Of a stretch of 64,000 bases of DNA, positions 35,634 to 63,762 are shown piece after piece. The stretch is from Promethearchaeota archaeon (lineage in GTDB: Archaea > Asgardarchaeota > Lokiarchaeia > Sigyniarchaeales > SOKP01), in assembly GCA_019058365.1 (NCBI GenBank), contig JAHPZE010000007.1, forward strand, positions 103,210 to 167,209, given 5' to 3'. Every line of letters starts with the position of its first letter. Positions within the stretch are counted from its first letter, which is position 1. A model generated the notes under the pieces. That model did not search any database and was not told the DNA's origin. It worked only from the letters and a program-made list of their open reading frames with translations. Both the position numbers and the translations under genes were made by a program.

Positions 35634-35664
35634 ATTTTTACTTCAATTAGATTTCTAATTTAGA

Positions 35665-38745: not shown

Positions 38746-38763
38746 TTTTACCCCTATTCGAAT

Positions 38764-39459: not shown

Positions 39460-39484
39460 TAATATAACAAAAGGTATTCTTAAT

Positions 39485-40603: not shown

Positions 40604-40726
40604 ATTTTTGATTAGTTTTAAAGAAAAAGATGCCAAAACGCAAGCACCTCTAGAATCTTCAAACTATGATTCTAATCATATATTTTTATTAATATAGCAA
40701 CTTTTTTAATAATTGGACGAAAGAAA

Positions 40727-41881
40727 ATGAAACCAAAAGCAAAATTAAACTTGGAATGGTTATTTGATTATAATAAAGATAAAACCAATTTTATAAATTT
40801 TATAGACGCTAGAGGAGGAAATTGGGCTGAATCCTTATCCAAAATAATTCAGAATCTGAAAAGTAAAGGGGTACAAGGCATTCAAGACAAATTTAAAGAT
40901 CTGGGATATAACATTGATAATGCTTATACTCAATTAAAACCGAGATTCTGTGAATTAGAAGTTGGAGATTTTATATCGAGTCAAGGAGAAAAAGTATATT
41001 TTTTAGAAGGTCAAAACTTGCCTGATATGATTTCAGGAACAAATAAATTTGATAAAGTGTGGGAGATTTCTACAATTTTTGACTCTCCTGAATTAAAAAA
41101 CCTTTGGATTGAAGCAGATAAAATAATTAGAAATTGGAACCAAAAAGTTAGATGCGATATTAAGCTAAGCGTAGGACTTTCAGGATTTAGACCAGAAAAA
41201 CGATATCACCATACTTTTAATAGAATAGTTAAATGTAGTTTGACTGAATTAAAAAACTTCGATCCAACAACATTAGAACCACATCATCTAGAAATAGTTA
41301 GGTCTCCAATGATTTTTTATCAATTAGAATTAAGTACTACCTCTTTTTCAGGGATTTCAACAATGATGGAAGGAGGGATTGAAGAGATGGCAAATTTAGT
41401 AACTCAAGAATATATTGATTCATGGGTTTCGCAATTTCAAGATAGAGTATTGAAGAAATCAAAACAAATGATTAATAATATTCGAAAAATAGAAAGTCTT
41501 GGAACTAATAAATGGGAAAAGGATAATTATCGCTTGATTACATTAGTCTCAGATGCGGATATATTTTATCATCAATATTTCTCTCAGACATGCTTTGGCT
41601 CATTGGATATTCACAAAACTAAAACTATCGGTGACCCTCGAGTAATTGGAATAAAGTCATCAAATCCTTGGTTTAAATATGTTAAAGAAAATTTTTCTGA
41701 TGATTATGGGAACCCTTTAAAGGAACCTAATGGTGTATTCTTAGATAAAGAAACTGAAGAGATTCACGGAATTCTATTCATTTCATCAAATCGAAGGCCA
41801 ATAGACTATAAGTTTTTAGCAAATCCTTTTGTGAAAAAAAATAATAATCCTAATTTAATTAAATATTTACCAAATTCGTGA
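40727..41881 (+). CDS. Putative PD-(D/E)xK restriction-endonuclease-fold protein
   Basis: 'FCELEVG...LPDMI...VWEIST' (E..PD..ExS variant). Confidence 0.55.
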   Translation: MKPKAKLNLEWLFDYNKDKTNFINFIDARGGNWAESLSKIIQNLKSKGVQGIQDKFKDLGYNIDNAYTQLKPRFCELEVGDFISSQGEKVYFLEGQNLPDMISGTNKFDKVWEISTIFDSPELKNLWIEADKIIRNWNQKVRCDIKLSVGLSGFRPEKRYHHTFNRIVKCSLTELKNFDPTTLEPHHLEIVRSPMIFYQLELSTTSFSGISTMMEGGIEEMANLVTQEYIDSWVSQFQDRVLKKSKQMINNIRKIESLGTNKWEKDNYRLITLVSDADIFYHQYFSQTCFGSLDIHKTKTIGDPRVIGIKSSNPWFKYVKENFSDDYGNPLKEPNGVFLDKETEEIHGILFISSNRRPIDYKFLANPFVKKNNNPNLIKYLPNS

Positions 41882-42130
41882 TAACTATTCAATATATAAA
41901 TTCTAACCTGATTTTTTGATCTAATTCTTAATAATATCCTTTTTTATCTCCTCCGGAAATGTTTTCATTTGTATTTTGGAAGCAAATATTCCTAGGATTA
42001 ATTTTAAAATATTACTATGTAAAAATCAGAAATTTTTAGTGCTATTATGTGTTATATTCTGATTTACTATCATTTAAAGCAATATGTATAATAGTCAAAA
42101 ATACTATTTTTTTCGATGTTCTAACTGCTT

Positions 42131-45323: not shown

Positions 45324-46559
45324 ATGGGAATCATTGGGAATGACGATGATAAAGATACTAATTCGTTTATAATTGGAAAATTGGTAGAATCAGAGGAGTT
45401 ATTAAATCTTGACATTTCATTTCCACATGTCATCCTTATCAGTGGAAAGAGAGGAACAGGCAAATCTTATTCATTAGGAGTAATAGCAGAGGGGTTGTTA
45501 GAAACCTCACAATTAGTACTTCTAACGGATACCATGAATATATATTGGACAATGTTTAAGAAAAATACTCAGAATGAATCTAAAAATCTGCCAAACTATG
45601 AGTTAATTTCAGAAGGACTTCCTATCAATCTAATAACTATCAAAAGTAATGATGACTTTTATGAAACAGTTCAAACCGAAACCAACCTTGTTCGAATCAC
45701 CAAATTAATTTTATTACCATCAGAGTTATCTCCATCTGAATGGTGTGATATGTTTGATCTGAGCATCAATTCGCCAATGGGTATGGCGTTATTTGATGCT
45801 GTATCAATAGTCTCAGAAAAAAGTTCGTTTAGTATTTCAGATATTGTTGCAAAACTAAATGAAACCGAAATTGCCATTGGAACATTAAAAGCTCTTGAAC
45901 GGAGGTTAAAGAGTGTTGAGCAATGGGGGCTTTTTGGAGAGAAAGGAGTAAAGCTAAATGAACTTATGGATAATAGGCATATTAATATTCTTGATTTAGG
46001 TATAATTCCAAGAGGATTTGGTGGTGGGATGAGGAATGTCCTTCTTACAATTTTAATAAGAAAGATCATGAATAATCGAGTTAGAATTCGCAAATATGAA
46101 GAATTAGCAGAAATAAGTGATAATGCCTACTTGTATAAATCAAAGATTAGAAAAGGACTTCTTCCTCTATGGTTATTAATTGACGAAGCACATCAATTTG
46201 TACCTCGTAAAGGCACGACTGTCTCCAAACCAGCTTTAATTACTTGGGCTAAAGAAGGGAGACAGCCAGGATTAGGACTAGTAATGGCGACTCAACGCCC
46301 GGGAGCATTAGATTCAGAGATATTAAGTCAATGTGATATTATTATAAGTCATAGGATTACTCTTAATCAAGATTTAAAAGCTTTAAATGATCTTTCTCAA
46401 AATTATATGACTCAAGAACTTCGTTATGCGATTGGTGAAATAAAAGGAAGAGGGAAAGCGATTATTATGGATGATATTACAGAAAAACTAATAAAGGCTG
46501 AAATCCGTCCTCGGAAAACTTGGCATGGTGGAGGAGAAAGAAAGATAAAGAAATATTGA
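45324..46559 (+). CDS. HerA/FtsK-superfamily ATPase (DUF87-type)
   Basis: Walker A GKRGTGKS, Walker B LLIDEAH, arginine finger 'KEGRQPG', 'ATQRP', 'LSQC'. Confidence 0.93.
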   Translation: MGIIGNDDDKDTNSFIIGKLVESEELLNLDISFPHVILISGKRGTGKSYSLGVIAEGLLETSQLVLLTDTMNIYWTMFKKNTQNESKNLPNYELISEGLPINLITIKSNDDFYETVQTETNLVRITKLILLPSELSPSEWCDMFDLSINSPMGMALFDAVSIVSEKSSFSISDIVAKLNETEIAIGTLKALERRLKSVEQWGLFGEKGVKLNELMDNRHINILDLGIIPRGFGGGMRNVLLTILIRKIMNNRVRIRKYEELAEISDNAYLYKSKIRKGLLPLWLLIDEAHQFVPRKGTTVSKPALITWAKEGRQPGLGLVMATQRPGALDSEILSQCDIIISHRITLNQDLKALNDLSQNYMTQELRYAIGEIKGRGKAIIMDDITEKLIKAEIRPRKTWHGGGERKIKKY

Positions 46560-46571: not shown

Positions 46572-47396
46572 ATGAGAGACTATCTTAATTATAAATACAA
46601 AATAATATATTCAGAACAATTTAGACTTCCTAGTATAAAATTTTTATTGAAATTATTTTCAAATAAAAAATCTCTATCTAAAAATGATTTAACTTCAAAG
46701 TGCATTCCATCTTCATATTTTAATAGCAAATTAACTTTAGAAAAATCAATAAGAATGATGAATTACTATGGATTAATTAATAAGAATAAGGAAAATTATC
46801 AACTTACGGAATTTGGTATAGTTGCTAAATATTCAACTCAATACAAAACTGAAAATGAATTCTTAGAAATACTAAATTACAGTTCATATGTAAATAATCT
46901 TACATACCATCTAATAATTGATCTTTTATTTAATATTTCAGAAAAGGAAATATCTGGAAGCATTGATTTCTTCTCTCAAATGTCTAGTGAGGAACAATAT
47001 ACTTACATCCAGAATAAAATTGAAGAATCTGTACAAAAAAATCTGCATAAGCGATATATCAGACATTTTACACACCCTATTAGGAAAATGGGTATTGTAG
47101 ATAAGTTTGGATTTATGCCAAGATTAAGAAATAATTTGTGGAAGGGTATTTTTTTAATCTCATTTAGTGATGTGTTAAAAGAAAATAAAAAGTCAAATAA
47201 TGAAATTTTACTTACAGATACTCTAATCAAGGATATTATAGCGCCCTTATTTTTAACTAAAGATGCGTTTTACTCATTCCTTAATAGAGAAACTTTACAT
47301 CCATATTTTAAATTGAACATAACAAAAGGGAAGGAATATTATATTCAAATTAATAAAATAGTAACACCCTTAACTATAGTGGAGGAGAATCTATGA
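46572..47396 (+). CDS. Tandem winged-helix DNA-binding protein (BrxA-like by position)
   Basis: 'SIRMMNYYGLI...YQLTEFG' and 'PIRKMGIV' wHTH-like ends; in the operon. Confidence 0.5.
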   Translation: MRDYLNYKYKIIYSEQFRLPSIKFLLKLFSNKKSLSKNDLTSKCIPSSYFNSKLTLEKSIRMMNYYGLINKNKENYQLTEFGIVAKYSTQYKTENEFLEILNYSSYVNNLTYHLIIDLLFNISEKEISGSIDFFSQMSSEEQYTYIQNKIEESVQKNLHKRYIRHFTHPIRKMGIVDKFGFMPRLRNNLWKGIFLISFSDVLKENKKSNNEILLTDTLIKDIIAPLFLTKDAFYSFLNRETLHPYFKLNITKGKEYYIQINKIVTPLTIVEENL

Positions 47397-47929
47397 ATTT
47401 AAAGAACTATATTTGGAATCATTCAGATGAATTCTATCTTATGCAAAATCAAGAAGACATTTTTAATAAAATTAAAGACTTCAAATTGAATGGTCCTATA
47501 CATATAGGAGGGGAAGAAGGGAATGGTAAGACTTTTTTAGCTAGAAAATTGCTAAATAATGAGTCGATTTATTTACCCATTCATTATAATTTCGATAGAT
47601 ATCTACTCAAGAATTATTCATTAATAATAGTAGATAACATTATTAATTTTCATTCAGAAATAATTTCAAAATTAAAAAGATGCATACAACATTGTAGATT
47701 GTTATTAATAATTAGTGAAAATTATTCAAAATCTTTAAATAATGATATCAATGCTATAATTAGACGTAATATAGACTTATATCCTCCTGATCTTGAAGAG
47801 ATAAATAATTTAGCACATTATTTATTTGAAATTTTCAAGATACCCTATAAAAATCTGCCTAAAAATGTTAATAATTTACAAAAATTAATAGACTTTTTCG
47901 ATCAGATAATAATAGAAAAAAATGAGTGA
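47393..47929 (+). CDS. Small P-loop NTPase (BrxB-like by size and position)
   Basis: Walker A GEEGNGKT, Walker B 'LIIVDN'; 4-nt overlaps on both sides. Confidence 0.65.
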   Translation: MNLKNYIWNHSDEFYLMQNQEDIFNKIKDFKLNGPIHIGGEEGNGKTFLARKLLNNESIYLPIHYNFDRYLLKNYSLIIVDNIINFHSEIISKLKRCIQHCRLLLIISENYSKSLNNDINAIIRRNIDLYPPDLEEINNLAHYLFEIFKIPYKNLPKNVNNLQKLIDFFDQIIIEKNE

Positions 47930-50900
47930 TGATTGATATGGATTTACGAGATGCTATAAAAAATTTGGGAGTTCTCGATATATTAAATGAAACTGCTACC
48001 CCAATTCGATTAAATCAATATTTTAATGAAAAATTTGAATTAATTAAAACTGGAAAGCACTTAATTAAAATAATGGAAACCTTAGCTCTTTATTGTGTAC
48101 CTAGTTGTGATCATGATAAAGCTCTTAAGAATATTATTAATAAAACTAAAGATGGAAAAGGACACATTGGTGTGGTTGAGGGGGATTTTGGCTCTGGGAA
48201 AACTGCATTTATGGCTTATATATGGGATAGATTAGAAAATGAAGGATATATGTCTTTACCTCCTCTGGGTCATGCAGATCCAAAACAGATCGTTGAAGCT
48301 ACTGGGAAATGGATAAAAAGCAAACTGGAAAGCAAACATTATAATGAAATTGATCAAATTTTAGAAAGAATAAATGATGTCAATCTTGAAAAAATAGCTA
48401 GTGCGATTGAAGATACAGAAGAGCTAAGAACTTTAGGGGTAATTGCTGGAGAAATTTTAAATGAACTTGCAAAATTCTGTAAGAAAGTAGGTTTTAGTGG
48501 ATTAATTATCCTTTTAGATGAATTGGAATATATTACTTCCGTTAGCAGAGGTAGTGAATCGAGTGAAAATATTAGACGTAATTTGGAATTATATAGAGAA
48601 TTCGTAAGGACAATTAATACTCAACAAAACATTTCTCCTTTAGTTTTTATGATTAGTGTTATCAGCTCTGATTGGGATCAAATTGAAAGCTTAAGGCATT
48701 TTTCAGGGCTAACTCAATCATTCCGTAGCAAATATAATGTTAATTCCCAAAGAGATAAGGATAATCCAGAGAAAAATCTAAGTTCTTTTCAAATCTGGAG
48801 TCATTGGAAAAATAAAATAGCTGAAAATGAAAATATTGGTGTTAAAGCAATACCTGATCCTTTTCATCCTATTATATTTAAAATTATTGATACAATATGC
48901 TTTGATCGTCCTGGAGAGGGTCAACAACCAAGAATGAGAGGTGTAATAAGAATATTGCAAGAACTATTAAAACAATATGTTGATAATAAAGAAATTCAAA
49001 CAATTATGCCAAATAGCATTTCAATTTTATTAAAAGAAGTTAATATTGGAAGTATAAAACAAGAGGGGATATTAGAAATTGAGGAGGATATACTTAAAAT
49101 CCCTTTTAAAGAGAGAAAGTATGCAAATATTGCACTTGAGATAGCGCAGATCTGCATTCCACTCTTTTGGAATGGTATTAATATAGATGAATTAGAAGAG
49201 ATTTTTGAAAATAAAGATGATTTTCAAATTGCTTTGAAAGAATTAAAAAAGCTTGGTTTTATCACTTATGAAGGTAAGGATAAAATCAGAATTGACCGAG
49301 AATATATGGAAAAGACTGTAAATAGACTTACACAAGATTTATCAATTAGACAAATTCTTAAAGAGATTAAAATAAAAGGCTTTCATGAATATGCTTATCC
49401 AGTTTTAGGTATGGAAGAGAGCATTAAAGCTTTAATAAGAAATCTAGAACTTAATATTGAAGAATTAGATTCAGAAGAAAATTATGTCAGATATAAAATA
49501 ACAGGTGAAATTGAGGAACCTACTATTAACCTATATTGGATAGAAAGGTGTTTTGAAGTTGTTGTAAGCGAAGAGCGTGATTTTGAAAAAGTTCTAAATA
49601 AAATATATCAAAATAACTCCTCAGATTTAAAAATTATCTTTCTATTGAGAGATTTTGATGAATCTGAAACGTTTATTGATGACAAGAATAATACGTTAGT
49701 AATTAAGATTGGTCCAGAAGTTGAGTGCAAATTAGAAGATGTTCAAGTCTCTCTTAAAGAAGCAGCAGCAATTTTCTACTATATGCATGAAAATAAAATA
49801 ATAAAAGGTCAAGAAACAATACAGAGTACTATTGTCCGTAGTATTTTTCAATCTATTGATATTGATGTATTTCAAATTGATGAGAAGGTTACTAGTTTTC
49901 ATGATTTAATTATCAATCTCTATAGGTTATTCTATCCTGAATATCAACCAGTAATGACAAAAAGTAGAACGCCTTCCAGTGCCATATCTAAGTTTATTGA
50001 ATTTATAAAGCAATTAGATTTAGAATATCGTGATTTCGGAGCGAGGGTACCTAAAACTAAATTTGATGAAGTTCTTTTTAACGTGGTCCCTCGAAAAAGT
50101 CAACATACTACATTAGAAAACAAGTTTCAGCAATATAACCTAATTCGGAAAGAGACTGAAAGCTCTGGTATATTCATGGTTATGAATGGTTTAATGGCTG
50201 AGAAGTTAATTGAGCAAAAAATTAGTGAAGACTCATTTATTTTAGATGATATTAAAGCATATCTAAGAGATTTGGGTTATCGAAATATAGAGATAGATTT
50301 AGCAATAGAGATTCTTGTGAAATATCGGGAAATGTATGAGATTAAGAAAGAAAGAATTGATATTTCTGGAAAAAAAGTTCTAAACGACGTATTAAAGAAA
50401 CGTAAATTTGAATTAGATTTCCTTCATAATTTTATAAGAAATATTGATACTTTGATAACTTCAATTTTTAAGGATGATAAGGATCTTTTCAATAAAGATC
50501 TAATTGAAAATTACAATAATTACAAACATAATTTTCAAAGTCTTGAGGAAACGTCTAACCTAATTAAAGACAAAACAATAAAAATAGAACAACAACAAGG
50601 TATCTTTCTTAATAAATTTAGAGATTTCGGCCAAATTTCTCAGAATCTTATTGGTCAGCTTGGCAAGTTCATAAAAAACATAAAAGATGAGACAGGTTTA
50701 TTCTATAATATAAAAAATATAGAAAAGATCTCTGTAGTCCCTCCAAAAGCACCTTATCCGGATTTTGCAGGCATTTTGAATAATATTTATAAAGAACTCC
50801 AAAATAATGTTCAGAAAATCTCTCAGAATAAAACTATTTTAATATCTTTTGAAAAAATATCTCAATTATTTCGAACTCTTGAGTCCTTTTTAGATAAATT

Positions 50901-52155
50901 GAATAACACAAGAGGGCTTCCCGAAGAAGGCATAGAAAATGATCTTAATAATATTATTAAGAAATATGCTGAAAGACCTACTACTATCAATGCAAATGTC
51001 TTATCTATTATTGGAAAAGATATAAATGATGTAATAAATGAATCTAGTAAAATTCAAAATGCCAGAAATGTAATTAATACCTTTATCACAGACTATTATT
51101 CATTTTGTGAAATTCTAAATGGTAAGGATTTAAAATCTTCATACTATGATCTTCAATACTCAAGCCAAATAATCGAAAGCAAACTAAAAATTAATGAAAA
51201 AGTAAAAAAAGAAATGGAGTCTCTTGAAACAATATTAATTAAGGCGAAAAGTAGATTAAATTCATCTTTAACCGCATTAAATGAATGTGTTACCGAGTTA
51301 AAAACAGATCCAGGTTTAGTTATACAATTCAGAACGGAAAGTGGAAAAGCAAGGGATCTTATTGAACTTCTAGAGCTGGTACAATTAAATAACCGTCTTC
51401 ATGATTTTAAGGATAAGTTTGAGAAGAAATATAATGAAACGAAAATAAGATTTTTAGATTTGATATCTCTTTCGAATCGATATGGTGTTAATGTTACTGA
51501 CACTCCAGTTCTGATAGATTCAGATAAATTTGAATCTGAATTTCCAAAATTAGATATATTAAATGACAAATATATTTCAATTATATTAAGATCTAAATCG
51601 CTAGAAACCCAACTCTTCAAATTATCACAGGAATTAATTGAATTACTTTTAAGTCATCTTTCTATTAGTATTAAGGAAGTTGATTCTAATTATGAAATTT
51701 TTAAAAAAATTATAGACATATCATCTTTACGAGGTGAAGATCAGGAAAGTATTCAAAAAAGTATTACTTCAATTGAGGAAATCGAGAAGGAAAGAATTCA
51801 ATTATTGAATAGTTTGTCTAATATTGAAGAGCCTAATAAAAAGATCAATTCCCTATATGTAAGGATTAAAAAGCAACAAGAATTTATAAAAGAACTCTGG
51901 CAAATCTACCAAAGTCGTTTAGAGAAGAAGAATGAATTGTTAAATGTAAAAAATGATTTAATGAAAATTCAAAGTGAAAATAAAGGTCCCTTTTCATTAT
52001 ATCAATATATTTTAAATTTTAAAAATCTTGAAAGAATGAGTAGAGACGAGATTCATGAATTATTATTAAATTCAGCAGAAAATATCTTTCAATTAGCCTT
52101 AGAAGGACATTTAAAATTAAAATTTGAAGTAATTAAATCAGAAGATGAAGAATAA
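47926..52155 (+). CDS. Large BrxC/PglY-like AAA+ ATPase with wHTH and long coiled-coil C-terminus
   Basis: Walker A GDFGSGKT, Walker B IILLDELE, 'PFHP', 'RMRGVIR', wHTH 'LKELKKLGFI'; directly precedes pglZ. Confidence 0.75.
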   Translation: MMIDMDLRDAIKNLGVLDILNETATPIRLNQYFNEKFELIKTGKHLIKIMETLALYCVPSCDHDKALKNIINKTKDGKGHIGVVEGDFGSGKTAFMAYIWDRLENEGYMSLPPLGHADPKQIVEATGKWIKSKLESKHYNEIDQILERINDVNLEKIASAIEDTEELRTLGVIAGEILNELAKFCKKVGFSGLIILLDELEYITSVSRGSESSENIRRNLELYREFVRTINTQQNISPLVFMISVISSDWDQIESLRHFSGLTQSFRSKYNVNSQRDKDNPEKNLSSFQIWSHWKNKIAENENIGVKAIPDPFHPIIFKIIDTICFDRPGEGQQPRMRGVIRILQELLKQYVDNKEIQTIMPNSISILLKEVNIGSIKQEGILEIEEDILKIPFKERKYANIALEIAQICIPLFWNGINIDELEEIFENKDDFQIALKELKKLGFITYEGKDKIRIDREYMEKTVNRLTQDLSIRQILKEIKIKGFHEYAYPVLGMEESIKALIRNLELNIEELDSEENYVRYKITGEIEEPTINLYWIERCFEVVVSEERDFEKVLNKIYQNNSSDLKIIFLLRDFDESETFIDDKNNTLVIKIGPEVECKLEDVQVSLKEAAAIFYYMHENKIIKGQETIQSTIVRSIFQSIDIDVFQIDEKVTSFHDLIINLYRLFYPEYQPVMTKSRTPSSAISKFIEFIKQLDLEYRDFGARVPKTKFDEVLFNVVPRKSQHTTLENKFQQYNLIRKETESSGIFMVMNGLMAEKLIEQKISEDSFILDDIKAYLRDLGYRNIEIDLAIEILVKYREMYEIKKERIDISGKKVLNDVLKKRKFELDFLHNFIRNIDTLITSIFKDDKDLFNKDLIENYNNYKHNFQSLEETSNLIKDKTIKIEQQQGIFLNKFRDFGQISQNLIGQLGKFIKNIKDETGLFYNIKNIEKISVVPPKAPYPDFAGILNNIYKELQNNVQKISQNKTILISFEKISQLFRTLESFLDKLNNTRGLPEEGIENDLNNIIKKYAERPTTINANVLSIIGKDINDVINESSKIQNARNVINTFITDYYSFCEILNGKDLKSSYYDLQYSSQIIESKLKINEKVKKEMESLETILIKAKSRLNSSLTALNECVTELKTDPGLVIQFRTESGKARDLIELLELVQLNNRLHDFKDKFEKKYNETKIRFLDLISLSNRYGVNVTDTPVLIDSDKFESEFPKLDILNDKYISIILRSKSLETQLFKLSQELIELLLSHLSISIKEVDSNYEIFKKIIDISSLRGEDQESIQKSITSIEEIEKERIQLLNSLSNIEEPNKKINSLYVRIKKQQEFIKELWQIYQSRLEKKNELLNVKNDLMKIQSENKGPFSLYQYILNFKNLERMSRDEIHELLLNSAENIFQLALEGHLKLKFEVIKSEDEE

Positions 52156-52167
52156 GGATGTGATTAG

Positions 52168-55100
52168 TTGGAAAATATTGAATTAGATTTAACTAAACAC
52201 AATATAATAACCACCAAAAATAATTTAGAAAGTTTAATTGAATGCTATCGCCAACATGACAACTTTATCTTAATATCTTCAGATACTTCTTCTTATTATG
52301 TTTACTCAATTATCAAAGAATATCTAGATCAAGGGCTTTCAGTTAATTGTATTGTTGAAATTGATGTTTTTAGATCACTGAAAATCTTCCAACGGTTTGA
52401 TCTTTCAGTTGTACAAGAATCATTAATTAAAATTCCTTTTAATAAACGGAATTTTACTTTAGCTCAGCAAATTCTGGAAAAAAGTTTTGAACTTTTTTTA
52501 GAGCAAAATTATAACTATAAAGTCCCCTATATACCATTCCAATTATCTCCTAGTGCTCTCAGAATAGCAAAAAAAATTATTGAAAATAATTATATTAATC
52601 AGAATTTTTTCAATAAATTCTCTAAAAAACTTATAATAAAATTAAAAGAATATAAGATAAGTTATATTCCCGAATTTTTAGGTTCTTATATAGGAAAAAC
52701 TGAGGATAGAAAAAAAGATAAAAAGAAAGAGTTAACAATCAACTTTTCAACAATATACAACGAATTGTTAAAGTTACAAAAATCCAAAGAAGATGACCTT
52801 GAGGACGTTATAAATAGACTTGAACAAGATTATATTGTTGATTTAAAGAATTTTTATTTAGAGTGGGATCTTGATAATGATGAAGAACGCCCATTTTTAA
52901 TAAGTGATACAATCAAAATCTTATTTGGTTTCCTATTTAATAAAGATGATGAATATCATCCTCTAATTAAAGGAATTCTACCCAAACATCTATCAAATAA
53001 CGTTGTTTTAATTATATTTGATAACTTAGGTTATTTTGATTTAATTCGTGGTATTAAACAAAGCAAATTATGGTCAACATTAAATTCGGAGAATGAAATT
53101 CTAATTTGTCCTGCTTTTTCAAGTTTCATAACCTCAACAGGTTCCGCGCTTTCATATTTAATTCGTGAAGATAAAGAGAATAAATCATTAATAGATAAGA
53201 TAGTCGATCAGATGATTGAAGAAGATGATCCTATTTCTGTAATAACAAGTTCTCAATGGAATCAGAACCACCCTTTTAATAAAAAATTATTTGATTCAAA
53301 AAGAAGTGGATATCTTAGGATATCAGAAACTGTTTTTACTTTAAATACATTAAAACCTTATCTCAAAGAACTTGAAAATAATCATTATTTGGTGGTACAT
53401 TCTTGTATGGGGATTCCACACGAGAATGTCTCATTTGAAAAATTATACGAGGAAGTTGAACAGAATGTCATAAAAAGGATTTCTGAAGCGATTGATTTGT
53501 TTCCAGATTCTGTAATCATAGCAATCGGAGATCATGGCGTTCAATGGACACACCAAAAGATTGGAGGTGGAGAAAAATTAGACAATAATAAACGAATTTC
53601 AAATATCCCTATTAAAGATTATTCAATGGGGGAAGTCAATATAGATAAACACAAAATTCTTCAGTTATTACAATTGGAATCCCAAAATTTCTTTCCTCTA
53701 AAACCTTCCTATGTAATAGAATTACCGAATACAAAAATGTGTCATGGAGGTTTTTCTTTTTCCGAACTTGTCATTCCTTTAATAATATGTAAACCTATAA
53801 AAAAAAAGATTGATCTAGAATTAGAAGAAGATCAAGTGGCACTTGGTGTTCCTTCTTTAGAAGAATCTAAAGTTAAAAAGGAAGATTTTATCCCAATACA
53901 AAAGGTTAGGGATATAATTCTCCACTATTTAGAGACAAATGGTCCATCGCAGGTTTCGGAAATAACAGAGTATGTAAGTAATGCTAAAAACAAGGATTTC
54001 TCAGAAGGTGATATAAATGGGTTATTACGTAGTTTATTGAGATATGGTAATGTTGTGAAAGGAAATCCTTCTGAAGGATCAGGTAAAAGAGCCAAAGCAA
54101 TAATATGGCATTTACCTAAACATGAAGAAAAATATAGAAAGATGGTAGATGAAGCAGAAGAGAAAATTTTAAAATTTATTAGAGAAAAAAAGGCGTGCTT
54201 ATTTAAACCAATATATGAAGAACTGCCTCTTAAAAGAGGGATTACCCTTTCAATATTACAACGGCTAAATTTTCAGAAAAAGATAGAAATTAAAGAATTT
54301 GAACGAATTTTCTATATTCATAATAATTTAATTTATAGCAAAGCAAAGATTTACTACATACCTGGTAATGAGGAGTATGCAATAAAAAGAATTTCTGAAG
54401 TTCAATCTGGTTCAAGTGCCCAAAGGAGTGAGAAAGCCTTATTAAGTCGATTCGATAATCTAATTGAACAATTAAATAAGGAACTTGAGTTTGAAGTGCC
54501 TGAAATTATCAAATCTGAAGCAATAAAGATAGCATTCCGAAAAATTAAAAAAAGTGGGAGGACAGGGATAAAGCATGTCGATCTTTTAGGTGCGGTTCTT
54601 TCTTTATCATTTAGGAAATTTCATATCCCGATTTCATTTGATTCTATTAGTAAAGCAGCAGTTCACACCAGTCTACTTCTAAAAAGTAAAGATCCAAAAG
54701 AAATTAATAATATATATAAACTATATTCTATAAGGAAAAAGAATATCCGGAAATTAAGTACAGAAATTCGAAGATTATTAGCTTTAAAGATAAAACCACT
54801 AAGTTTTAAAGATTATTTTAAATTCATTATTATGCGTCTAGATTGCCCTTACTACATTTATCACTTTGGAAACCAGATTTTAAAGGAATCAAATAGTTTT
54901 GTTTTACCTGGAATTGATCCCGGTGGGTTTGCAGGAGCAATAATTTACTATATTATTCGAAAAATAAAACCACTTGGTATATGTTATAAGACTTACAATC
55001 AAAAAACTATAGCAAGAATTATTAATGTGACAGAAGTTACATTAAGAAAGGCATTTAAAATTCTTGAATTAAAGATTCATCCATACTTTTCTAGTGAAAT

Positions 55101-56595
55101 TAATGAAATCGAAAGATTTATTGAAGATTCTGTTGATTTCAAAGAATTGAGAATTATTACTCAAGAAGGAAATGTTAGTCTTTCTGAACATCAAAACAGC
55201 ATTGAAGTTATAATAAGAAGCTTGATTAAGAACACTTTAGATTATGAATTAACTTACTGTGAGGAACATTATAGTAATGGAAATATAAATCATAAATCTG
55301 TTGTATTTTTCTTAGAGAACGAAATAATTGAAGGATTGCTAAATGAAAATTACAATATCATATTAAGTTCTCAAGAATTTATTAAGTATCTCATACCAGG
55401 ACAATCGAGAGTATTTGTTTGCAAAAATACAGTAGATAGAAACTTACAATTCTCATTTACTCCGAAGGTAGTTTTAATAAATATTCCACTATCTTATGCT
55501 AAAAATCTTATTCAGTTTGCAGGTATAGAATTAGCCGAGTTCTATATACAATGCAAGGATTCAGAGTTTATCCATGCCATGATTTTAGATAATGATAGTA
55601 TTGAAGAACATTCAATCGCTCTTTTTGATCTATTAGAAAAATTAGAATTGAAAGAATATCAAAAAAGTCTCTTGATACCAGAAATTGAAGGTCAATTTTT
55701 AAATGAATACATTATTGAATTTGAAGAAACCCTTGATGATGATAGTACCAGTGAAAAAGAAGTAAAAACTATTAAAAAAACAGAACTCTTTCGAGAATGG
55801 TTGGAAGAGGAGATCGATGTTAATAAAGATACTAAGAAAAATGACCAAATTTCAACTCAAGATATAGTAAAACCTAAACTAAAAGATCTTATAGACGATT
55901 TTAAATTATTTATTGATAATATTGATTATTCTGAAATTCTAAAAACACCAAAGAATTGCTACTTTATCATTAATCAAAGTTTAGAAGCTTATAACACTAA
56001 TCTTTACCAACCCGCTTTTGAAACAATGTTAACATCATTAGAACGATTGCTCTACAACTATCATTTTATATTCTTAAAGACTACAGAACGTTTAGACATT
56101 CATAAATATTTAAAGGATTTATGGAAAGAACGACTAATTTCAAAAGATCTTCGCGATCAAATAAATATTATAGCACGTTGTAGAAATGAAGTTAAACATG
56201 GGAGAAGAGATGTTGATCTTAATTATTTTAATACGTATTTTCTGTTAATTCTCGATTCGATTAAGAGATTAAGCTATGAATATTTTCAAATTCCAGCAAT
56301 TCATAAGGTAATAGAGCAGTTAAATAATCTAGAATTTGTTAAAGAACACAACCTTATTCCAATAAAACATGATCCTCAGATCCTTAAAAAATGGCTATTT
56401 AATAAGATTGAACAAATGTTTATATATGAAAGAGATGAGACCATAAACAATATTAATACCTTTAACATTATCATAGAATTTTTCATAGCTTCATTAAAGG
56501 ATAAAAAACAGAAACAATTCTACTTCAGTCTTGAATGTGAAATGAAAAGAGAAGGTAAAAATTATCTTATAATAAAAATGGAAGAAATGGATTGA
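52168..56595 (+). CDS. pglZ: PglZ-domain phosphatase fused to two wHTH domains, TFB/TFIIB cyclin repeats and a HEPN domain
   Basis: PglZ 'IIFDNLGY', 'GDHG', 'HGGFSFSELVIP'; TFB 'GIDPGGFAGAIIY...QKTIARIINVTEVTLRK'; HEPN 'RNEVKH'. Confidence 0.85.
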   Translation: MENIELDLTKHNIITTKNNLESLIECYRQHDNFILISSDTSSYYVYSIIKEYLDQGLSVNCIVEIDVFRSLKIFQRFDLSVVQESLIKIPFNKRNFTLAQQILEKSFELFLEQNYNYKVPYIPFQLSPSALRIAKKIIENNYINQNFFNKFSKKLIIKLKEYKISYIPEFLGSYIGKTEDRKKDKKKELTINFSTIYNELLKLQKSKEDDLEDVINRLEQDYIVDLKNFYLEWDLDNDEERPFLISDTIKILFGFLFNKDDEYHPLIKGILPKHLSNNVVLIIFDNLGYFDLIRGIKQSKLWSTLNSENEILICPAFSSFITSTGSALSYLIREDKENKSLIDKIVDQMIEEDDPISVITSSQWNQNHPFNKKLFDSKRSGYLRISETVFTLNTLKPYLKELENNHYLVVHSCMGIPHENVSFEKLYEEVEQNVIKRISEAIDLFPDSVIIAIGDHGVQWTHQKIGGGEKLDNNKRISNIPIKDYSMGEVNIDKHKILQLLQLESQNFFPLKPSYVIELPNTKMCHGGFSFSELVIPLIICKPIKKKIDLELEEDQVALGVPSLEESKVKKEDFIPIQKVRDIILHYLETNGPSQVSEITEYVSNAKNKDFSEGDINGLLRSLLRYGNVVKGNPSEGSGKRAKAIIWHLPKHEEKYRKMVDEAEEKILKFIREKKACLFKPIYEELPLKRGITLSILQRLNFQKKIEIKEFERIFYIHNNLIYSKAKIYYIPGNEEYAIKRISEVQSGSSAQRSEKALLSRFDNLIEQLNKELEFEVPEIIKSEAIKIAFRKIKKSGRTGIKHVDLLGAVLSLSFRKFHIPISFDSISKAAVHTSLLLKSKDPKEINNIYKLYSIRKKNIRKLSTEIRRLLALKIKPLSFKDYFKFIIMRLDCPYYIYHFGNQILKESNSFVLPGIDPGGFAGAIIYYIIRKIKPLGICYKTYNQKTIARIINVTEVTLRKAFKILELKIHPYFSSEINEIERFIEDSVDFKELRIITQEGNVSLSEHQNSIEVIIRSLIKNTLDYELTYCEEHYSNGNINHKSVVFFLENEIIEGLLNENYNIILSSQEFIKYLIPGQSRVFVCKNTVDRNLQFSFTPKVVLINIPLSYAKNLIQFAGIELAEFYIQCKDSEFIHAMILDNDSIEEHSIALFDLLEKLELKEYQKSLLIPEIEGQFLNEYIIEFEETLDDDSTSEKEVKTIKKTELFREWLEEEIDVNKDTKKNDQISTQDIVKPKLKDLIDDFKLFIDNIDYSEILKTPKNCYFIINQSLEAYNTNLYQPAFETMLTSLERLLYNYHFIFLKTTERLDIHKYLKDLWKERLISKDLRDQINIIARCRNEVKHGRRDVDLNYFNTYFLLILDSIKRLSYEYFQIPAIHKVIEQLNNLEFVKEHNLIPIKHDPQILKKWLFNKIEQMFIYERDETINNINTFNIIIEFFIASLKDKKQKQFYFSLECEMKREGKNYLIIKMEEMD

Positions 56596-57086
56596 AATAA
56601 TGATTTTAAAGATGTTATATTGCTTCTATTGGAAAAAAAATTACAAAATTAGAAATCATGCATGATTTCTCTTACAATTCTGATTTTTATTAGAAAGAAA
56701 GAATTTGAGGGATTACATCCAATTTTTCAAGAAATTTTGAATAAATTTTAACTTTTGAATTCTAAAGTCACCCAAATCTTAAATTTAATTTATAAGGCTG
56801 AATCTTTATGTATTTTACAAAATATGATTATTATTACCTATGGCAGAAATCAATTAATGAAAACTTTCCATCAAAGATAGATATACAAAATCTTAAAAAA
56901 AGTATTAAAAAGGAATTAAATAACAAATTACATGATGAATCTAGGGAAATTTAAAATTTAATTTTCCTTAACGTCTATAGGGATAACAATGATGATTTAA
57001 AAGAAATTATTAATAAAAATGTTAATAAAATCAATGGATTATGATATTAATATGAGTATCGATACTAATCGCCCCTTAGGGACAAA
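56596..57086 (+). pseudogene. Probable decayed coding sequence (lost N-terminus of the TPR gene or a separate gene)
   Basis: Coding-like fragments in shifting frames (e.g. 'YYYLWQKSINENFPSKIDIQNLKKSIKKELNNKLHDESREI*') leading into the TPR ORF, which has only a TTG start. Confidence 0.4.
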
Positions 57087-60000
57087 TTGTTCATTTTAGA
57101 ACGATATATACTTAAAAAGCGAATTGAAATAATGAAGATGTTAGAGGATAAAGATGAAAAAGATTTAATCTTCCTCTGTATTTCCTTACTTTTACAAAAT
57201 TTGTTCCTTAAAAAGTTAAGACTAGATCCGGGATATCGATTGAAAGTTTTATTGGAACTAGACAAAGATTTAAAAGTATTAAGACAAGCAAAAAGAGATT
57301 TAATTCTTTTATTTGAAGATTCTTCCCTTATTAAGGAATTTTCAGAGACAGTTAAAAAATCTAAAAGGGAGGATTTTAAGTTTGAGGAAAGACGCCTATT
57401 TATGAATGTAATAAATGAAAGGCAATATTTTAAAGTCTTCACTTCCGTATTTTTAAAAGAGAACGAGAAGATTCTCTGGTTTTATCTCTTATGGGGAGAG
57501 TTTATGGAAAATGGAAAAATCTCAGAAGCTATAGCCACTGAAGCTATGTTATTAGAGCTAATAGGGGGATATTTTCAATGTTACTTTCTTTTTTGGAAAG
57601 AATCACCATATGAAACGCCAAGAAATGCACACTATTATCTACTAAATGGAATAAGAGAAATTGTCAAAATGATCAATCCTTTCTTCTTAGATTATATAGA
57701 ATCTCAGAGGGCAAACATCCAGTTGACAGAGGAAATACAAGATATTATTGATAGCTTAAACTTTAACAAATTAATAAAACAATTAGATGAAATTTCAAAC
57801 CATTTAAAGGATATTTATGATTGCGAAATCGATAAGTTCAATAATAAACAATTATACAAATCAATTTTAACAATCTGCGCTCTAACATACTTCAATAATC
57901 TCCCTTTGGAGCAAAAAGTTTTGCAATTAAATAAAATTCAAGGTGTATCAAAATTTATAGAATTGGTGCGGTTGTACCCTACAGTTTACCCAGATAGAAT
58001 GTTTTCTATTGATCTTCCCACATGGTACAGAAATGGGCTTCTTCCTAGCTTTAAATCCCTAATTGAAGAAAAAATTAAGTCTCTTGATCATATAAGATCA
58101 ATTTCTTATCTAAAAAAAAATGAAGAAGAGCTGACTCATTTTATTTTAGCAAAATATTTATATAAAATTTTAATCTTGGAAAAAAAATATTCTTTAGCCT
58201 TCAAACTACTTAGTGAACGTTTTGAATTTATAGAAAACCTAGTGAATACGAAATTCAAAAACTATGATATGTGTAATGGAGAAGATCATTTTCAAGTGGA
58301 GATGTTATTCCTACTTGGTCAGATTGCTGCAGTTTCTAAGAAAGAAGCTGTCTTAAATCATATTATTAAAATTTTTAATAAGATGGGATTATCAGAAACG
58401 AATCCCTTAACTACGTATAAATTTCTAGCATTGAAGAGTATTTTATACCGTATAACTGGGGATTACAAAAAAGAATCTTTTCTCTTTCAGAGTATAAGAG
58501 TTGAGATTACTAAATTATTAAAAGAAAAAAAATTAAACCCAATAGAAATTATGGAATATCTTCTTCCTGCCCAATTGTTATTTTCTGAGAATTTTAATCC
58601 TAAGGTTATTAAACAACAGTCCATTATTCAACAATCAATTCTAACTTTTGAGAGGGAGTCTTTAATTCCTTATAATATTGAACCTTATATCATATATTTA
58701 GATTTAAGAAAAGAATTACTACGTAAAGCTCCTAATATTGGTGCTTTAGAGATAAGAGATAAAAGTTTCGAGTTATTAAATCTCAATTATATGAGTCTTC
58801 AATCACAAAGTTTGGGGAGTTTTAGAGAAGCACTTTTTTATGTTCCTGATATTATCACTTTAATTAATATTTATGAAAAAACCGATGAAAAAAGAATTCT
58901 GATGGAAACTATCGCATTTCCATATTTATATTTAGGTGATTATAAAAATTCGAAAGCTTATTTAGAAAAAGCATTAGAATTTAATCCGACTGATGCATAT
59001 TATAATGAATATTTGATATTAGTTAATTTGGCCTTGGAAGATTTTTCAGAAGCTTATAAGCATTTATTCAAACAATATCAGATGGATAAATTTCGCAGAA
59101 CTACTACAACAGCTACGTATATTGAATCATCCTATCGTCTATTACTATTTTGGTTTCAAGAATCTAAATTTGATGATGTAATTAACTCACTATTAGATAA
59201 TCTTCCTGAATTTGACAAATTGCTCCTTTATATTGATAAAATATATTGTGATATTGGAACTACATTTGCTAATTTAGGATTTTTTGAAAAAGCATTGTAT
59301 TATTATTTGAAATCATATAAAATAACTACAGACAGTGAGTTAAAAGCTTCATTACTAAATAATATTGGGACTCTACATAGTGATCAAAATAATATTGGAA
59401 AAGCTATAGAGACTTTTGAGAATGCTTTAGGATTAAACCAGGACAACAAAATGTTTTGGTTCAACCTTGCAAAAATGTATGAACTAAAACATAATTATAT
59501 TAAAGCAAAAGATATCTATGAAAACGCCAGTAAACACTTTGAAAGTAAGGATAAAGAAATTGCAGAATATATGAAATTGCAAAGTAGTCTAGCGGAATTG
59601 GATTCAAAAGGAATCCTTAGTTTAAATTTGGTAAAAGATGAGGATGCGCTAGAACATTTTAAGATTGCCCGTGAATTATTCTTAAATCGAAATACTATAA
59701 AATTTCTTTCAGATAATACAGGGAGTATTATCCATCATCTTACTAATGGATTTGATTGTCTATTTCATTCTAATATTTCTCTTTTATTAAATAAAATTTT
59801 AAGGAAAACATACCCGAATAATAATCGGCTCCCACCTAATATTTGGAAGGCTTTACCTCGAGGAGTTAGGGAAATCTGGAGAGGAAAGCACATGTCGCTT
59901 GGAAATATTTTATACTTAATCAACGATATGTTAGCAGTTAATCCTAATAATTTAGTAAAAACTTTTAGGGATGAAATATATCAGGTTTTAAGTTCTGAGG

Positions 60001-60159
60001 ATTTGAAAATTATTAAGAAAATGGCCGAAATTTGTTCAGATATACGAAATCCCGCAAGTCAATGGAGGAATTATAAATAACCAGACTTTATTGAATGCTT
60101 TACCTGAAATAATTGGAAATTTGAACAAATGTATACTTATCTTTAATAAATTCACTTAA
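57087..60159 (+). pseudogene. TPR-repeat protein with C-terminal HEPN domain, +1 frameshift at 60061-60062
   Basis: TPRs 'YLEKALEFNP', 'LLNNIGTLH...FENALGLN'; removing one A restores RNPASHGGIINNQTLLNALPEIIGNLNKCILIFNKFT* ending at 60159. Confidence 0.8.
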
Positions 60160-61077: not shown

Positions 61078-61731
61078 ATGTCCTTAGAAATTAAATCTGT
61101 TGAAATTAATATTACTAGTGATATGTTGGGTTTGACAAGAGATAGACATACCCGTATGATTTTAAGAAAAACTTTGGAAGATATGGTTATTTATGAAGGT
61201 AAATATAGATATAATGTAAAATACCCCTTACCAGCCAATTTACAATCTCTCATTAATCAATTTTGCGAACATCCAGCTTTAGGAGCTATAAATAATGTTA
61301 ATTCGTATTTTGATAAAACCATAAAAGCAGGTTATACATCAGGAGGGAGAAGGGCTTATTCAAGACCGAGACTATACGAAAAAAAAAAGATCACTCCTAG
61401 TACAAGTGACATTAGCGCAGTTGGAGAAGGTATTGTTGGTTTTTATTTCGAAAATATTAAAAAGTATACGTTTGAAATTCGTCCATTCGGCGTATCACCC
61501 GATTTAATATTTAGAGATCGCTTAAAAAAGCCATCTCCTACTCATTTAATCGAAGTAAAAGCAAGCCTCTCAGATAATAATCCGAGTCTGACAATTGCTA
61601 TTGACATACTTTCAATTTTAGCTAAAACATCATTTCTAAGGAAGGGAAAATATTTTTCCCATATTTGCCAAGTATATATTAAACAGATTGACAATTTGAT
61701 TATAAAAGACTTAGTTATGGAAGGAGTATAA
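61078..61731 (+). CDS. PD-(D/E)xK nuclease-family protein
   Basis: 'AVGEG...SPDLIF...LIEVKAS'. Confidence 0.8.
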   Translation: MSLEIKSVEINITSDMLGLTRDRHTRMILRKTLEDMVIYEGKYRYNVKYPLPANLQSLINQFCEHPALGAINNVNSYFDKTIKAGYTSGGRRAYSRPRLYEKKKITPSTSDISAVGEGIVGFYFENIKKYTFEIRPFGVSPDLIFRDRLKKPSPTHLIEVKASLSDNNPSLTIAIDILSILAKTSFLRKGKYFSHICQVYIKQIDNLIIKDLVMEGV

Positions 61732-62060
61732 TGAACAAGAGCCCTAAATATTATCAAAAGAATAAAGAATATGATAAAGCATTAGATATATTTGTTCAAA
61801 ACTATATGGAAGAATTATATAATGGGGATTTTTATTTAAGTCAGCATTACATGGATGAAATTATCCAATCAATTTTGGAAAAGTTAGAGATTAAAAAAAA
61901 TTATGAAAAATTAGGTAGTGTTGAATTAGATTCGATTGTAAGGAGATTATTAAAAGATAAAAAAATCAATTTTAACAATTATTCTAAACAAATTGAAATT
62001 GATTTAAAAATCTCTATAACAAAACGATTTCCTCAATCCAAAGTTAATCTGATCGAATGA
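61731..62060 (+). CDS. Hypothetical protein translationally coupled to the nuclease
   Basis: TAATG stop/start overlap. Confidence 0.65.
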   Translation: MNKSPKYYQKNKEYDKALDIFVQNYMEELYNGDFYLSQHYMDEIIQSILEKLEIKKNYEKLGSVELDSIVRRLLKDKKINFNNYSKQIEIDLKISITKRFPQSKVNLIE

Positions 62061-62096
62061 ATAATTTAAGCATTTATATAATTAACTATTACTTAA

Positions 62097-62164
62097 TTAC
62101 CGTATATATCTAATTAAAAATTCCTCAATCTTTTCTCTTTTATAGCTTCGCTCTTTTTATACAT
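62097..62164 (-). pseudogene. Internally deleted remnant of the 63514-63762 gene family
   Basis: 5' 'MYKKSEAIK' joined out of frame to 3' 'EKIEEFLIRYIR*'; flank AGACAATAGATT shared with the 44.7-kb copy. Confidence 0.85.
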
Positions 62165-62367
62165 TACATCGAGACAATAGATTCGAAAGATTAAAAAGTA
62201 GAAGAGAGATATAATTTTTATTTAAACTTACCAAGATTATTTGCATATATTTAACAGAATAAAAAAATAATAGTAGATAATGACAAAACTCAATGCTCAT
62301 AATATTCTTTAAGTAAGAATCTTAGCTAATCTTATTTAAAAGACTATCTAATAAGTTCTGAAGAAAA

Positions 62368-63423
62368 TTATATTTTCTTAACTCTAAAATCTCCATCAAT
62401 ATGAATTTCTATATAACTTGGGGTTTTATCAGCAACCCAACAACCGGCATTCATCATAACGACATTATTAACATTACTCACATCAGTCTCATGGGAGTGC
62501 CCAAATATAACATGAGTGATTGGTTGAAGTGAATATTTTTCTAAGAATTGAAGAATCCTCCTGAAATATATCTCATTTTTTATATTTCTTCCATTATTAT
62601 GCAATCTTTTATCAATCTTTATTAAATCTTTTTCCATTCTTGATGGAGAAAAGTCAGAGATATCAAGTTTCCTTTCTGACGCCACATATTCGATATTTTC
62701 ATCAGTAATCAATAAATTGAATTGTTTTAATCCATACCATAATTCATTTAAAAGAACTCGTTCCACATCCTCCTCAACAAAACTCTTCCATACTGGAGCA
62801 AAAAAGAAATGATGCTTAAACCAAGCTTCAAATTGATATCCGTGAGCCATGAAATATTGGTAACTATTCTTTAGGTTTTTATTTTCAAGTATTATAGTTC
62901 CTTTATCATTTTCTCTTAAAATCAATCCTAATTCATTGAACTGAATATCATAAATAGAGTCAAATACTGATATTACTGTGTTGTTTGAAGAATTTTGACC
63001 AAAAATTACATACTGACACACAGTAAATTCATTTAGAAAATTATAATAAAATCTATTCACTCTTAATTTTTCTAAAAAATCTTTCTTACGTTTCTCAAAT
63101 TCAAAATTATAAAAACCACCTGTAGGTATTTCATGATTCCCTAAAGCGAAAATTATTTCAACACCATTATTATTTATTGCTTGTAAAATATTATATATAT
63201 CCACGAATACTTTATTGCTACATAAATTTTCAATTGTATTCCAAATTAGATCAAAGAAATCTCCAAGAATAACAAGAGCCTTTAAATATGGTAAATTCCT
63301 ACTCATTCGAGATTCAAATATATTTGAAAGAAAAACTAAAAATTCTTCTCTTCTGCAATAAATATCTCCCAGGTGCACATCAGAAAAAACCAATATTCGT
63401 GTGGAATTATCTATATGGAACAA
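62368..63423 (-). CDS. Calcineurin-like metallophosphoesterase
   Basis: 'SDVHLG', 'LGDFFD', 'GNHE', 'AHG', 'FGHSH'. Confidence 0.92.
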   Translation of the reverse strand: MFHIDNSTRILVFSDVHLGDIYCRREEFLVFLSNIFESRMSRNLPYLKALVILGDFFDLIWNTIENLCSNKVFVDIYNILQAINNNGVEIIFALGNHEIPTGGFYNFEFEKRKKDFLEKLRVNRFYYNFLNEFTVCQYVIFGQNSSNNTVISVFDSIYDIQFNELGLILRENDKGTIILENKNLKNSYQYFMAHGYQFEAWFKHHFFFAPVWKSFVEEDVERVLLNELWYGLKQFNLLITDENIEYVASERKLDISDFSPSRMEKDLIKIDKRLHNNGRNIKNEIYFRRILQFLEKYSLQPITHVIFGHSHETDVSNVNNVVMMNAGCWVADKTPSYIEIHIDGDFRVKKI

Positions 63424-63513
63424 AATTAATTAATCACTTTAATTGGGTTTCTAACATCTCTATTAAATAATCATTAATTCATTCTAAAATTAATTTATTT
63501 GCAAACTTTTGAA

Positions 63514-63762
63514 TTACCGTATATGTCTAACTAAAAATTCCTCAATTTTTTTTAATAGAACATTTCTACATTCAGGATGCAACCATTCTTCTCCTTTGAA
63601 TAATCTCTCTTCTTCTGCTTTTATGTGAAGCCATAAATGCATAAGAACAACATAAGTGGTCGTTCGAAGTTCGCTAAAATTCTGCGTCTTACAAATCTTA
63701 TCGAGAATTTGTTGAATGAGCTCCCTTCTGGCTCGTTTTACTGCCTCGCTCTTTTCATACAT
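63514..63762 (-). CDS. 82-aa hypothetical protein (intact member of the three-copy family)
   Basis: Intact ORF; two decayed paralogues in the window show it is a real gene. Confidence 0.85.
   Translation of the reverse strand: MYEKSEAVKRARRELIQQILDKICKTQNFSELRTTTYVVLMHLWLHIKAEEERLFKGEEWLHPECRNVLLKKIEEFLVRHIR

Follow-up and report, generated by a model that had tools for sequence, protein, structure and literature searches.

A TFB-type transcription factor core embedded in a divergent PglZ protein with a likely HEPN domain, encoded in a rare BREX-related cassette of an Asgard archaeon

The pair of a BrxC/D ATPase and PglZ is the signature of the BREX superfamily (PMC12205998). A 2026 survey described the BREX-Related Capture (BRC) systems, which consist of HerA/FtsK, a BrxC-like DUF6079 protein, PglZ, an active STAND NTPase homologous to BrxB and the BrxA-like DNA-binding protein DUF4007; they are sparse, occur also in archaea and in some loci have no modification enzyme, whereas the HerA/FtsK translocase is always present (PMC12839542). 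According to the same survey, BREX PglZ proteins commonly have helix-turn-helix (HTH) or winged helix-turn-helix (wHTH) units after the catalytic domain, and HEPN recurs as a backup effector in BREX as well as BREX-related (BR) systems (PMC12839542). Here we analyzed a 64,000-nucleotide window of a Promethearchaeota genome (4.7 Mb, ~27-29% G+C), which forms the end of one of its contigs (C9). An open reading frame (ORF) of this window, at 52168..56595 (+), encodes a protein that combines a divergent PglZ-type domain, the double-cyclin core of the archaeal general transcription factor TFB and a likely HEPN domain. A first reading of the window from its letters, hereafter the original prediction, had proposed such a fusion of PglZ, wHTH, TFB and HEPN modules. 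BREX-related PglZ effectors are known; the recruitment of a TFB core into such a protein is described in no paper that we found.

Like BRC, the five-gene cassette that ends with this ORF brings together a HerA/FtsK-type ATPase, a BrxC-like ATPase and a PglZ effector with small accessory proteins, one of them a P-loop NTPase. It differs in having neither a Pfam-detected DUF6079 or DUF4007 nor a GNAT or TGT protein. Moreover, the PglZ of BRC is described without C-terminal additions, whereas the PglZ domain here is followed by ~930 residues comprising two putative wHTH units, the TFB core, a middle domain and the HEPN-like domain (PMC12839542). The survey of BRC does not mention TFIIB, cyclin or Asgard, and its supplements hold neither Asgard names nor TFIIB (PMC12839542). 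Compared to the PglZ/BrxZ of Type I BREX, the protein shows aligned Thr/His metal-site motifs, HTH-type units after the catalytic domain and a BrxC-family ATPase as partner. By contrast, the cassette lacks the PglX methyltransferase, BrxA, BrxB and BrxL of Type I BREX, and its PglZ has diverged beyond the reach of Pfam PF08665 and PADLOC, has another N-terminal domain and bears the TFB and HEPN additions. The papers searched included none that names PglZ together with TFIIB, in keeping with the earlier remark that no PglZ-TFB fusion was known; the only one with both PglZ and 'transcription factor B' is a general review of restriction-modification.

The ORF is a single uninterrupted frame of 1475 residues with the start codon TTG, and all of its domains are given below by their positions on the forward strand (+). 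Word and profile searches retrieved four further full-length proteins of 1465-1472 residues from other assemblies, with identities of 69, 53, 54 and 37%. The ORF is collinear over every domain in five independent assemblies. In the Logan assembly of the probable source run, one unbroken 25-kb contig spans positions 51500-57200 at a depth of ~84x, with 0 differences and no joint. The PglZ-wHTH-TFB-HEPN ORF is not a chimera. The predicted coordinates proved exact as well, with residues 754-970 corresponding to nucleotides 54427-55077 and the motif RNEVKH (R1339-H1344) beginning at nucleotide 56182.

Both profile and fold searches identified a TFB/TFIIB core at residues 746-985 (54403..55122), with cyclin repeat 1 at residues ~770-880, including an insertion, and repeat 2 at ~881-970. 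On the segment of residues 740-1000 alone, Pfam TFIIB matched two stretches with 25.5 bits, above the cut-off of 23.6, compared to 18.2 bits, under the cut-off, for Pfam TFIIB (PF00382) on the whole 1475-residue protein. The NCBIfam TFIIB model PRK00423 matched with an E-value of 9.4e-10, and a sequence search against solved structures returned the Pyrococcus TFB core (1ais, 1d3u) on top. A hidden Markov model (HMM) built from residues 746-985 of five members was compared with each of the 7072 ORFs in this genome, and placed 11 canonical TFB paralogues at the top (E 4.6e-14 to 9.2e-7); the alignments are collinear, with repeat 1 on repeat 1 and repeat 2 on repeat 2. A profile of residues 250-1449 searched against 1.84 billion representative proteins gave 15 matches at E ≤0.001, nine of which are family members, and the other six are ordinary TFBs of ~300 residues that matched via the TFB region alone. 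Structural similarity search with an AlphaFold2 (AF2) model using Foldseek revealed TFIIB, TFB or Brf at ranks 1-39 without exception. VIA-align superimposed 172-185 residues over both repeats onto TFIIB, TFB and Brf1 with Z-scores of 9.1-10.8, and repeat 1 onto cyclin boxes with a root-mean-square deviation of ~3.3 Å. The predicted local distance difference test score (pLDDT) of the model is 58.6, and both AF2 models have a mean of ~59-60, which leads to low TM-scores, so only the family ranking was used. Altogether, there is strong support that residues 746-985 are a copy of the double-cyclin core of TFB with both repeats in order, as had been predicted, and this is the best-supported part of the protein.

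Further analysis of the core in an alignment of seven family members with 17 canonical TFBs revealed an identity of ~21-28% to the canonical proteins. The order of the two cyclin repeats matches that in the TFB/TFIIB cores of 1ais, 1d3u and 1c9b, with which the family also shares G(K/I)DP.G.A.AIIY, TQK.IA and VTEVT.R; it keeps the second of these motifs as (T/N)QK.IA. The counterpart of the helix that recognizes the B recognition element (BRE), VTEVTLRK (V954-K961; 55027..55050), was located by alignment in repeat 2, where a VTEVT.R-type helix had been expected. TEVT[LI]R occurs in five of the seven family members, with TEITLR in P0005 and TEVSIR in P0011, down to an identity of ~29-32%. In a motif-level comparison of 13 sequences, covering family members and TFBs, R960 is invariant and E956 nearly so. 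Despite this likeness, the core differs from TFB/TFIIB in that it occupies the middle of a 1475-residue protein, has an insertion of 20-70 residues within repeat 1 and lacks the Zn ribbon, the B-reader, the B-linker and the arginine of the GR(S/A) motif. The Zn ribbon is considered absent because the protein contains no CxxC anywhere, and residues 560-760 contain one Cys only. The B-reader and B-linker were not found, as alignments to TFBs begin at the core; the B-reader is considered absent because two winged-helix-like units directly precede the core. In the repeat-1 alignment, which is the weaker one, the position following the invariant Gly of GR(S/A) reads I/T/L/L/K/R/A in the seven family members. 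We take the arginine of this motif to be R169 of human TFIIB, which contacts TBP. A co-fold of the host TBP (residues 30-215) with the TFB-like core ended with a score of 0.01, at which the program gave no answer.

The PglZ domain, an alkaline-phosphatase-like domain at residues ~275-543 (52990..53796), was detected by profile-profile comparison. Using the PglZ of the host as query, we collected 54 canonical PglZ proteins, and hhalign of the two domain profiles gave a probability of 97.3% with an E-value of 1.7e-11 over 248 columns, compared to ≤0.7% for the other five segments of the protein. The motifs FDNLGY (D285), FSSFITST (T322), GDHG (D455-H456) and HGGFSFSE (H526) are in register with canonical DALRYE, PSiT, DHGF and HGGiSLQE, respectively, and their metal-site residues are invariant in five family members. 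This agrees with the motifs that the original prediction had placed at residues ~282-540. A search by language-model features (ESM Atlas) likewise returned PglZ clusters for 27 of 30 matches. At the level of single sequences or of the family HMM, the domain escapes recognition: PglZ was not matched in the protein by Pfam PF08665, PADLOC or NCBIfam (Pfam and PADLOC at E up to 10), a sequence search against solved structures with residues 230-600 gave no match, the family PglZ HMM did not recover the canonical PglZ of the host among its own ORFs, and the search of 1.84e9 proteins returned no PglZ protein. In a PglZ of Type I BREX, mutation of Thr or His abolishes or weakens the nuclease activity (PMC12205998), and T322 and H526 correspond at motif level to these two residues. 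Judged by profile and motifs, residues ~275-543 thus form a divergent PglZ domain with its metal-site residues intact. The same genome also encodes an ordinary PglZ of 793 residues (C30:73375-75756; Pfam 66.7 bits), and canonical PglZ is rare in the phylum, being found in 3 of 151 genomes sampled.

Between the PglZ domain and the TFB core are two stretches, residues 575-655 and 656-745 (53890..54402), that may form winged helices. Sub-threshold Pfam matches of residues 575-745 are nearly all to winged-helix families, including FaeA (E 3.3e-5), TnsA_C, Penicillinase_R, TrmB, MarR_2 and TFIIE_alpha, and an HMM of this region found one tandem-wHTH protein in the same genome (E 1.3e-4). These hints are consistent with two winged helices before the TFB core, and on this basis we accept the two wHTH-like units that had been suggested. 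The N-terminal domain (residues 1-235; 52168..52872) has no match in Pfam and no relative in the genome, and reached 1% by hhalign when compared with the N-terminal parts of canonical PglZ proteins. The middle domain (residues 986-1190; 55123..55737), which shows an alternating pattern of strands and helices, matched nothing in Pfam, in atlas features or with its HMM in the genome, and gave ≤0.7% by hhalign against the flanks of canonical PglZ. It has the conserved motifs FFLEN, SRVFVC.NT.D.NL and AGIELAEFY, and always accompanies the block of the second winged helix and TFB core (wHTH2-TFB), also in the stand-alone proteins P0010 and P0011.

Fold matches suggest that a helical domain at residues ~1241-1375 (55888..56292) is HEPN-like. 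It contains the Rx4H motif RNEVKH (56182..56199), of which R1339, N1340 and H1344 are invariant in six sequences, and the AF2 model of the C-terminal part has a pLDDT of 65-88 over residues 1237-1372. Structural similarity search using VIA-align against 48,161 chains placed the HEPN domains of Roquin (Z 12.1), AF_0298 (11.7) and sacsin (10.4) on top, along with SO_3166 (10.2), TT1696 and ST0689; these HEPN leaders span Z-scores of 12.1-9.7 and are followed by Csm6, LsoA, RnlA and AbiA. The best 14 matches of Foldseek are all HEPN toxins or HEPN-domain proteins, with weak E-values (0.14 and weaker). The ESM Atlas returned HepT-like, PaREP1, DUF4145 and NTase_sub_bind clusters, all four of which we take to belong to the HEPN clan. 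By interpolation of the aligned ranges, R1339 and H1344 would lie only a few residues away from the catalytic R and H of HepT toxins (R97/H102 in SO_3166; R102/H107 in the 7ae8 toxin). At sequence level, residues 1241-1375 match no HEPN family, in Pfam or elsewhere, and hhalign against HepT (3.9%) and DUF4145 (0.6%) proteins of the host is not significant; both local alignments place RNEVKH on an R..xH or N..xH motif. The only profile match of the segment to a solved structure, a FliC/FliS chimera (E 0.034), was treated as a chance match. The modelled domain would share a four-helix HEPN-like fold with HEPN RNases and HepT toxins, and its R-N-x3-H stands where the motif is expected, but it is followed by a C-terminal extension of 100 residues (1376-1475; 56293..56595), which is conserved, has no family assigned and is modelled with a pLDDT below 50. 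In Type-1 BR systems, DUF499-HEPN similarly fuses HEPN to a core defence component (PMC12839542), whereas the HEPN domain here would be at the C-terminal end of PglZ rather than on an ATPase. Overall, with HEPN proteins leading three fold searches and the motif invariant, we regard residues 1241-1375 as likely, but not proven, to be the HEPN domain that the motif had suggested.

The five genes of the cassette are co-directional (+) and overlap or abut each other. Gene 1 (45324..46559) encodes a HerA/FtsK-type ATPase of 411 residues similar to MAD8, with 36 bits for Pfam DUF87, a full-length match to PADLOC mad8 (E 5.6e-19) and matches to several HerA models, including PADLOC HerA; the NCBIfam HerA families matched under their cut-offs. 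Gene 2 (46572..47396) encodes a protein of 274 residues that matches no family; hhalign of its family against three DUF4007 proteins gave 0.2%, with both profiles very shallow. Gene 3 (47393..47929), which overlaps genes 2 and 4 by 4 nucleotides each, encodes a small P-loop NTPase of 178 residues with Walker A (GEEGNGKT) and Walker B (LIIVDN) motifs and weak AAA/STAND matches under the cut-offs. Gene 4 (47926..52155), directly upstream of the PglZ gene, encodes a P-loop ATPase of 1409 residues that belongs to the BrxC/BrxD family according to Pfam (BrxC_BrxD, 38.5 bits; cut-off 22.2), PADLOC and NCBIfam (BrxD), and has the Walker A motif GDFGSGKT. Its orthologues are also above the Pfam cut-off; DUF6079 was not listed for gene 4 at E up to 1, BrxC_BrxD alone being detected. 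Three Walker A motifs are present among the five products, which match no methyltransferase family and contain no [DNS]PP[YFW] motif; the neighbours scanned revealed no methyltransferase either. Most BREX types encode a PglX/BrxX methyltransferase. The same five genes occur in the same order in two other loci, with products of 411, 273-274, 178-180 and 1409-1413 residues next to the PglZ-TFB protein. The flanks of the three loci differ: ribosomal L37ae and prefoldin in one, small ORFs and a Cas4-like gene in another, and orphans and a TPR protein in the window, which indicates that the cassette moves as a unit. At ~2100-2350 of an ENA contig (L009), the homologue of the 274-residue gene is broken by a masked run of N, leaving the N-terminal part alone usable.

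Around the cassette, at 33932-44356 and 61078-63762, nearly all ORFs have no Pfam or PADLOC family, so that the region resembles a variable island. Among the few that do have one are the genes of a trypsin-like protease that bears a Zn ribbon (35665-36912, -) and of a calcineurin-like phosphoesterase (62368-63423, -), with no others noted. Just downstream of the cassette is the gene of the TPR protein (57087-60080, +), which has 997 residues and matches the PADLOC model 'TPR' (PDLC02907, E 3.4e-12). In the two other loci it is absent from the immediate vicinity of the cassette, which makes it probably cargo of its own.

The family is very small, comprising the nine members among the 15 profile matches and two further close full-length relatives found by word search. 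In 40 related genomes, 24 of them of the same genus, no full-length relative was found and the only matches were TFBs; scans of genome contigs and metagenome contigs with the family alignment found no relatives either. The wHTH2-TFB-middle block also occurs as complete stand-alone proteins, namely P0010 (690 residues; a Promethearchaeota metagenome-assembled genome) and P0011 (903 residues; a different N-terminus). P0011 is divergently transcribed from an ORF (L010:2-319, -) with a CPSC...CKSC zinc-ribbon motif, possibly of mobile-element origin. Free-standing TFIIB homologues are encoded by archaeal conjugative elements (PMC6563490); they resemble the present proteins in that TFB-family domains are used outside core transcription in a setting of conflict between mobile element and host, but differ in that they are free proteins, compared to a domain inside a nuclease-type effector here. 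The host itself has a large repertoire of basal factors, consisting of 11 canonical TFB paralogues, a further, divergent copy in which the Zn ribbon is present but the TFIIB repeats are weak (C35:154597-155631), and two TBP genes (contigs C37 and C16). The TFB paralogues are spread over contigs C35, C34, C44, C51, C39, C26, C16, C15, C7 and C20.

We consider the odds slightly better than even that this protein is the large effector/sensor subunit of a rare BREX-related, BRC-like defence cassette, where the TFB core would be used to read DNA or promoters. What has been computed is the domain architecture, the pattern of conservation, the cassette and how rare it is; every functional step that follows is inferred. 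With the Zn ribbon and B-reader, which bind RNA polymerase, and the R169-aligned arginine gone, the TFB core would have been stripped of its initiation function. Through the retained BRE-reading helix-turn-helix, it would read DNA, probably a purine-rich BRE-like or promoter-like sequence. We propose this role because the BRE helix is conserved across the family while the polymerase-binding N-terminus is absent and the equivalent of R169 is not kept. Such reading may place or license the complex on invading DNA handled by the HerA and BrxC-like ATPases, where the DNA would be cut by PglZ and HEPN would serve as an additional effector, an RNase of the abortive type. In archaeal viruses, strong BRE+TATA promoters precede the early and anti-defence genes (PMC11065993), and one may speculate that these are a plausible target of the TFB core.

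Several points weigh against this proposal. The role in defence would follow from domain content and patchy distribution, and DNA binding by the TFB core from one conserved helix. PADLOC recognized no complete system, and most of the neighbours are orphan genes instead of established defence genes. The HEPN call combines a model of medium confidence, a short motif and Z-scores in the range that helical bundles reach by chance, as VIA-align can give Z-scores below 13 in this way. In addition, a DNA-reader model gives no reason for the conservation of cyclin repeat 1 and no role to the N-terminal and middle domains, and with no methyltransferase in the cassette it leaves the sparing of self DNA unexplained.

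Among the alternatives, the core might instead act in a TBP-dependent way, docking on TBP-TATA-BRE to block recruitment of the polymerase at invader promoters and to bring in the nucleases. Both cyclin repeats in canonical order and the kept BRE helix are in line with this. A TFB truncated at its N-terminus is unable to recruit the polymerase, so the bound core could block initiation. The strong BRE+TATA of viral early promoters (PMC11065993) would offer docking sites. However, repeat 1 has a large insertion, and the position that we align with R169 is not kept as arginine by most of the family. The R169E substitution in human TFIIB prevents association with the TBP-TATA complex (PMC6004067). 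The sparing of host promoters would be left unexplained too. We rate TBP-dependent occupation as rather unlikely.

We find it distinctly improbable that the core is an integrated decoy, which would mimic host TFB and switch on HEPN and/or PglZ once a viral factor binds or modifies it. To our knowledge, no viral protein that targets TFB has been described. The core without its polymerase-recruiting N-terminus would be unable to act in initiation, it is part of an effector that also has two nuclease-type domains, and the initiation machinery is contested, as archaeal mobile elements carry TFIIB homologues of their own (PMC6563490). Nevertheless, with so low an identity to canonical TFBs and the insertion in repeat 1 it is a poor mimic, and it is close to none of the 11 to 12 divergent TFB paralogues of the host. 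Moreover, its best-kept element is the DNA-reading helix rather than a protein surface, and the wHTH2-TFB-middle module also exists alone, without effectors.

A function outside defence, with the cassette as a machine of DNA repair, chromatin or gene regulation, or with the TFB block regulating the promoter of the cassette only, is very unlikely: HerA-type ATPases do occur in archaeal DNA repair and NCBIfam HerA repair models match gene 1 under their cut-offs, most neighbours are orphans, and the stand-alone proteins of the module may simply be regulators, but against this stand the BrxC/D-PglZ signature pair (PMC12205998), the closeness of the gene 1 ATPase to the defence protein MAD8, the putative HEPN Rx4H domain fused on, the lack of a copy in the 24 same-genus genomes searched, the three different genomic contexts of the cassette and its extreme rarity, with 15 matches in 1.84e9 proteins, six of them ordinary TFBs. 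The architecture and the defence context of the original prediction stand. The two mechanisms it offered, a decoy and steering to TBP-bound promoters, are rated below a DNA reader; the low identity, the repeat-1 insertion, the R169 position and the stand-alone occurrence of the module lean away from a faithful TFB decoy.

Beyond the reading of the TFB core as a DNA or promoter reader, a bolder proposal, to which we give little credence at present, is that a general transcription factor has become an immune sensor: the TFB core of a PglZ-HEPN effector would read a hallmark of the viral takeover of transcription and couple it to cleavage of DNA and RNA, and would thereby tell self from non-self without DNA methylation. 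As such a hallmark, the core might recognize BRE/TATA promoters of exceptional strength on the invading DNA, promoters of the invader that TBP has bound, or a TFB-targeting protein of the virus.

The general importance of this arrangement is uncertain, since the family is tiny. As standard domain libraries miss so divergent a PglZ, BREX-like systems in Asgard archaea may be under-counted. General transcription factors are regarded as housekeeping proteins, and here, in the archaeal lineage closest to eukaryotes, the DNA-reading core of one of them is reused as a building block of an apparent immune system. Should the core indeed read promoter-like DNA, invaders could be recognized without DNA methylation. 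For the BREX superfamily, in which target recognition and the mechanism of killing are under debate, this would add a new principle of sensing.

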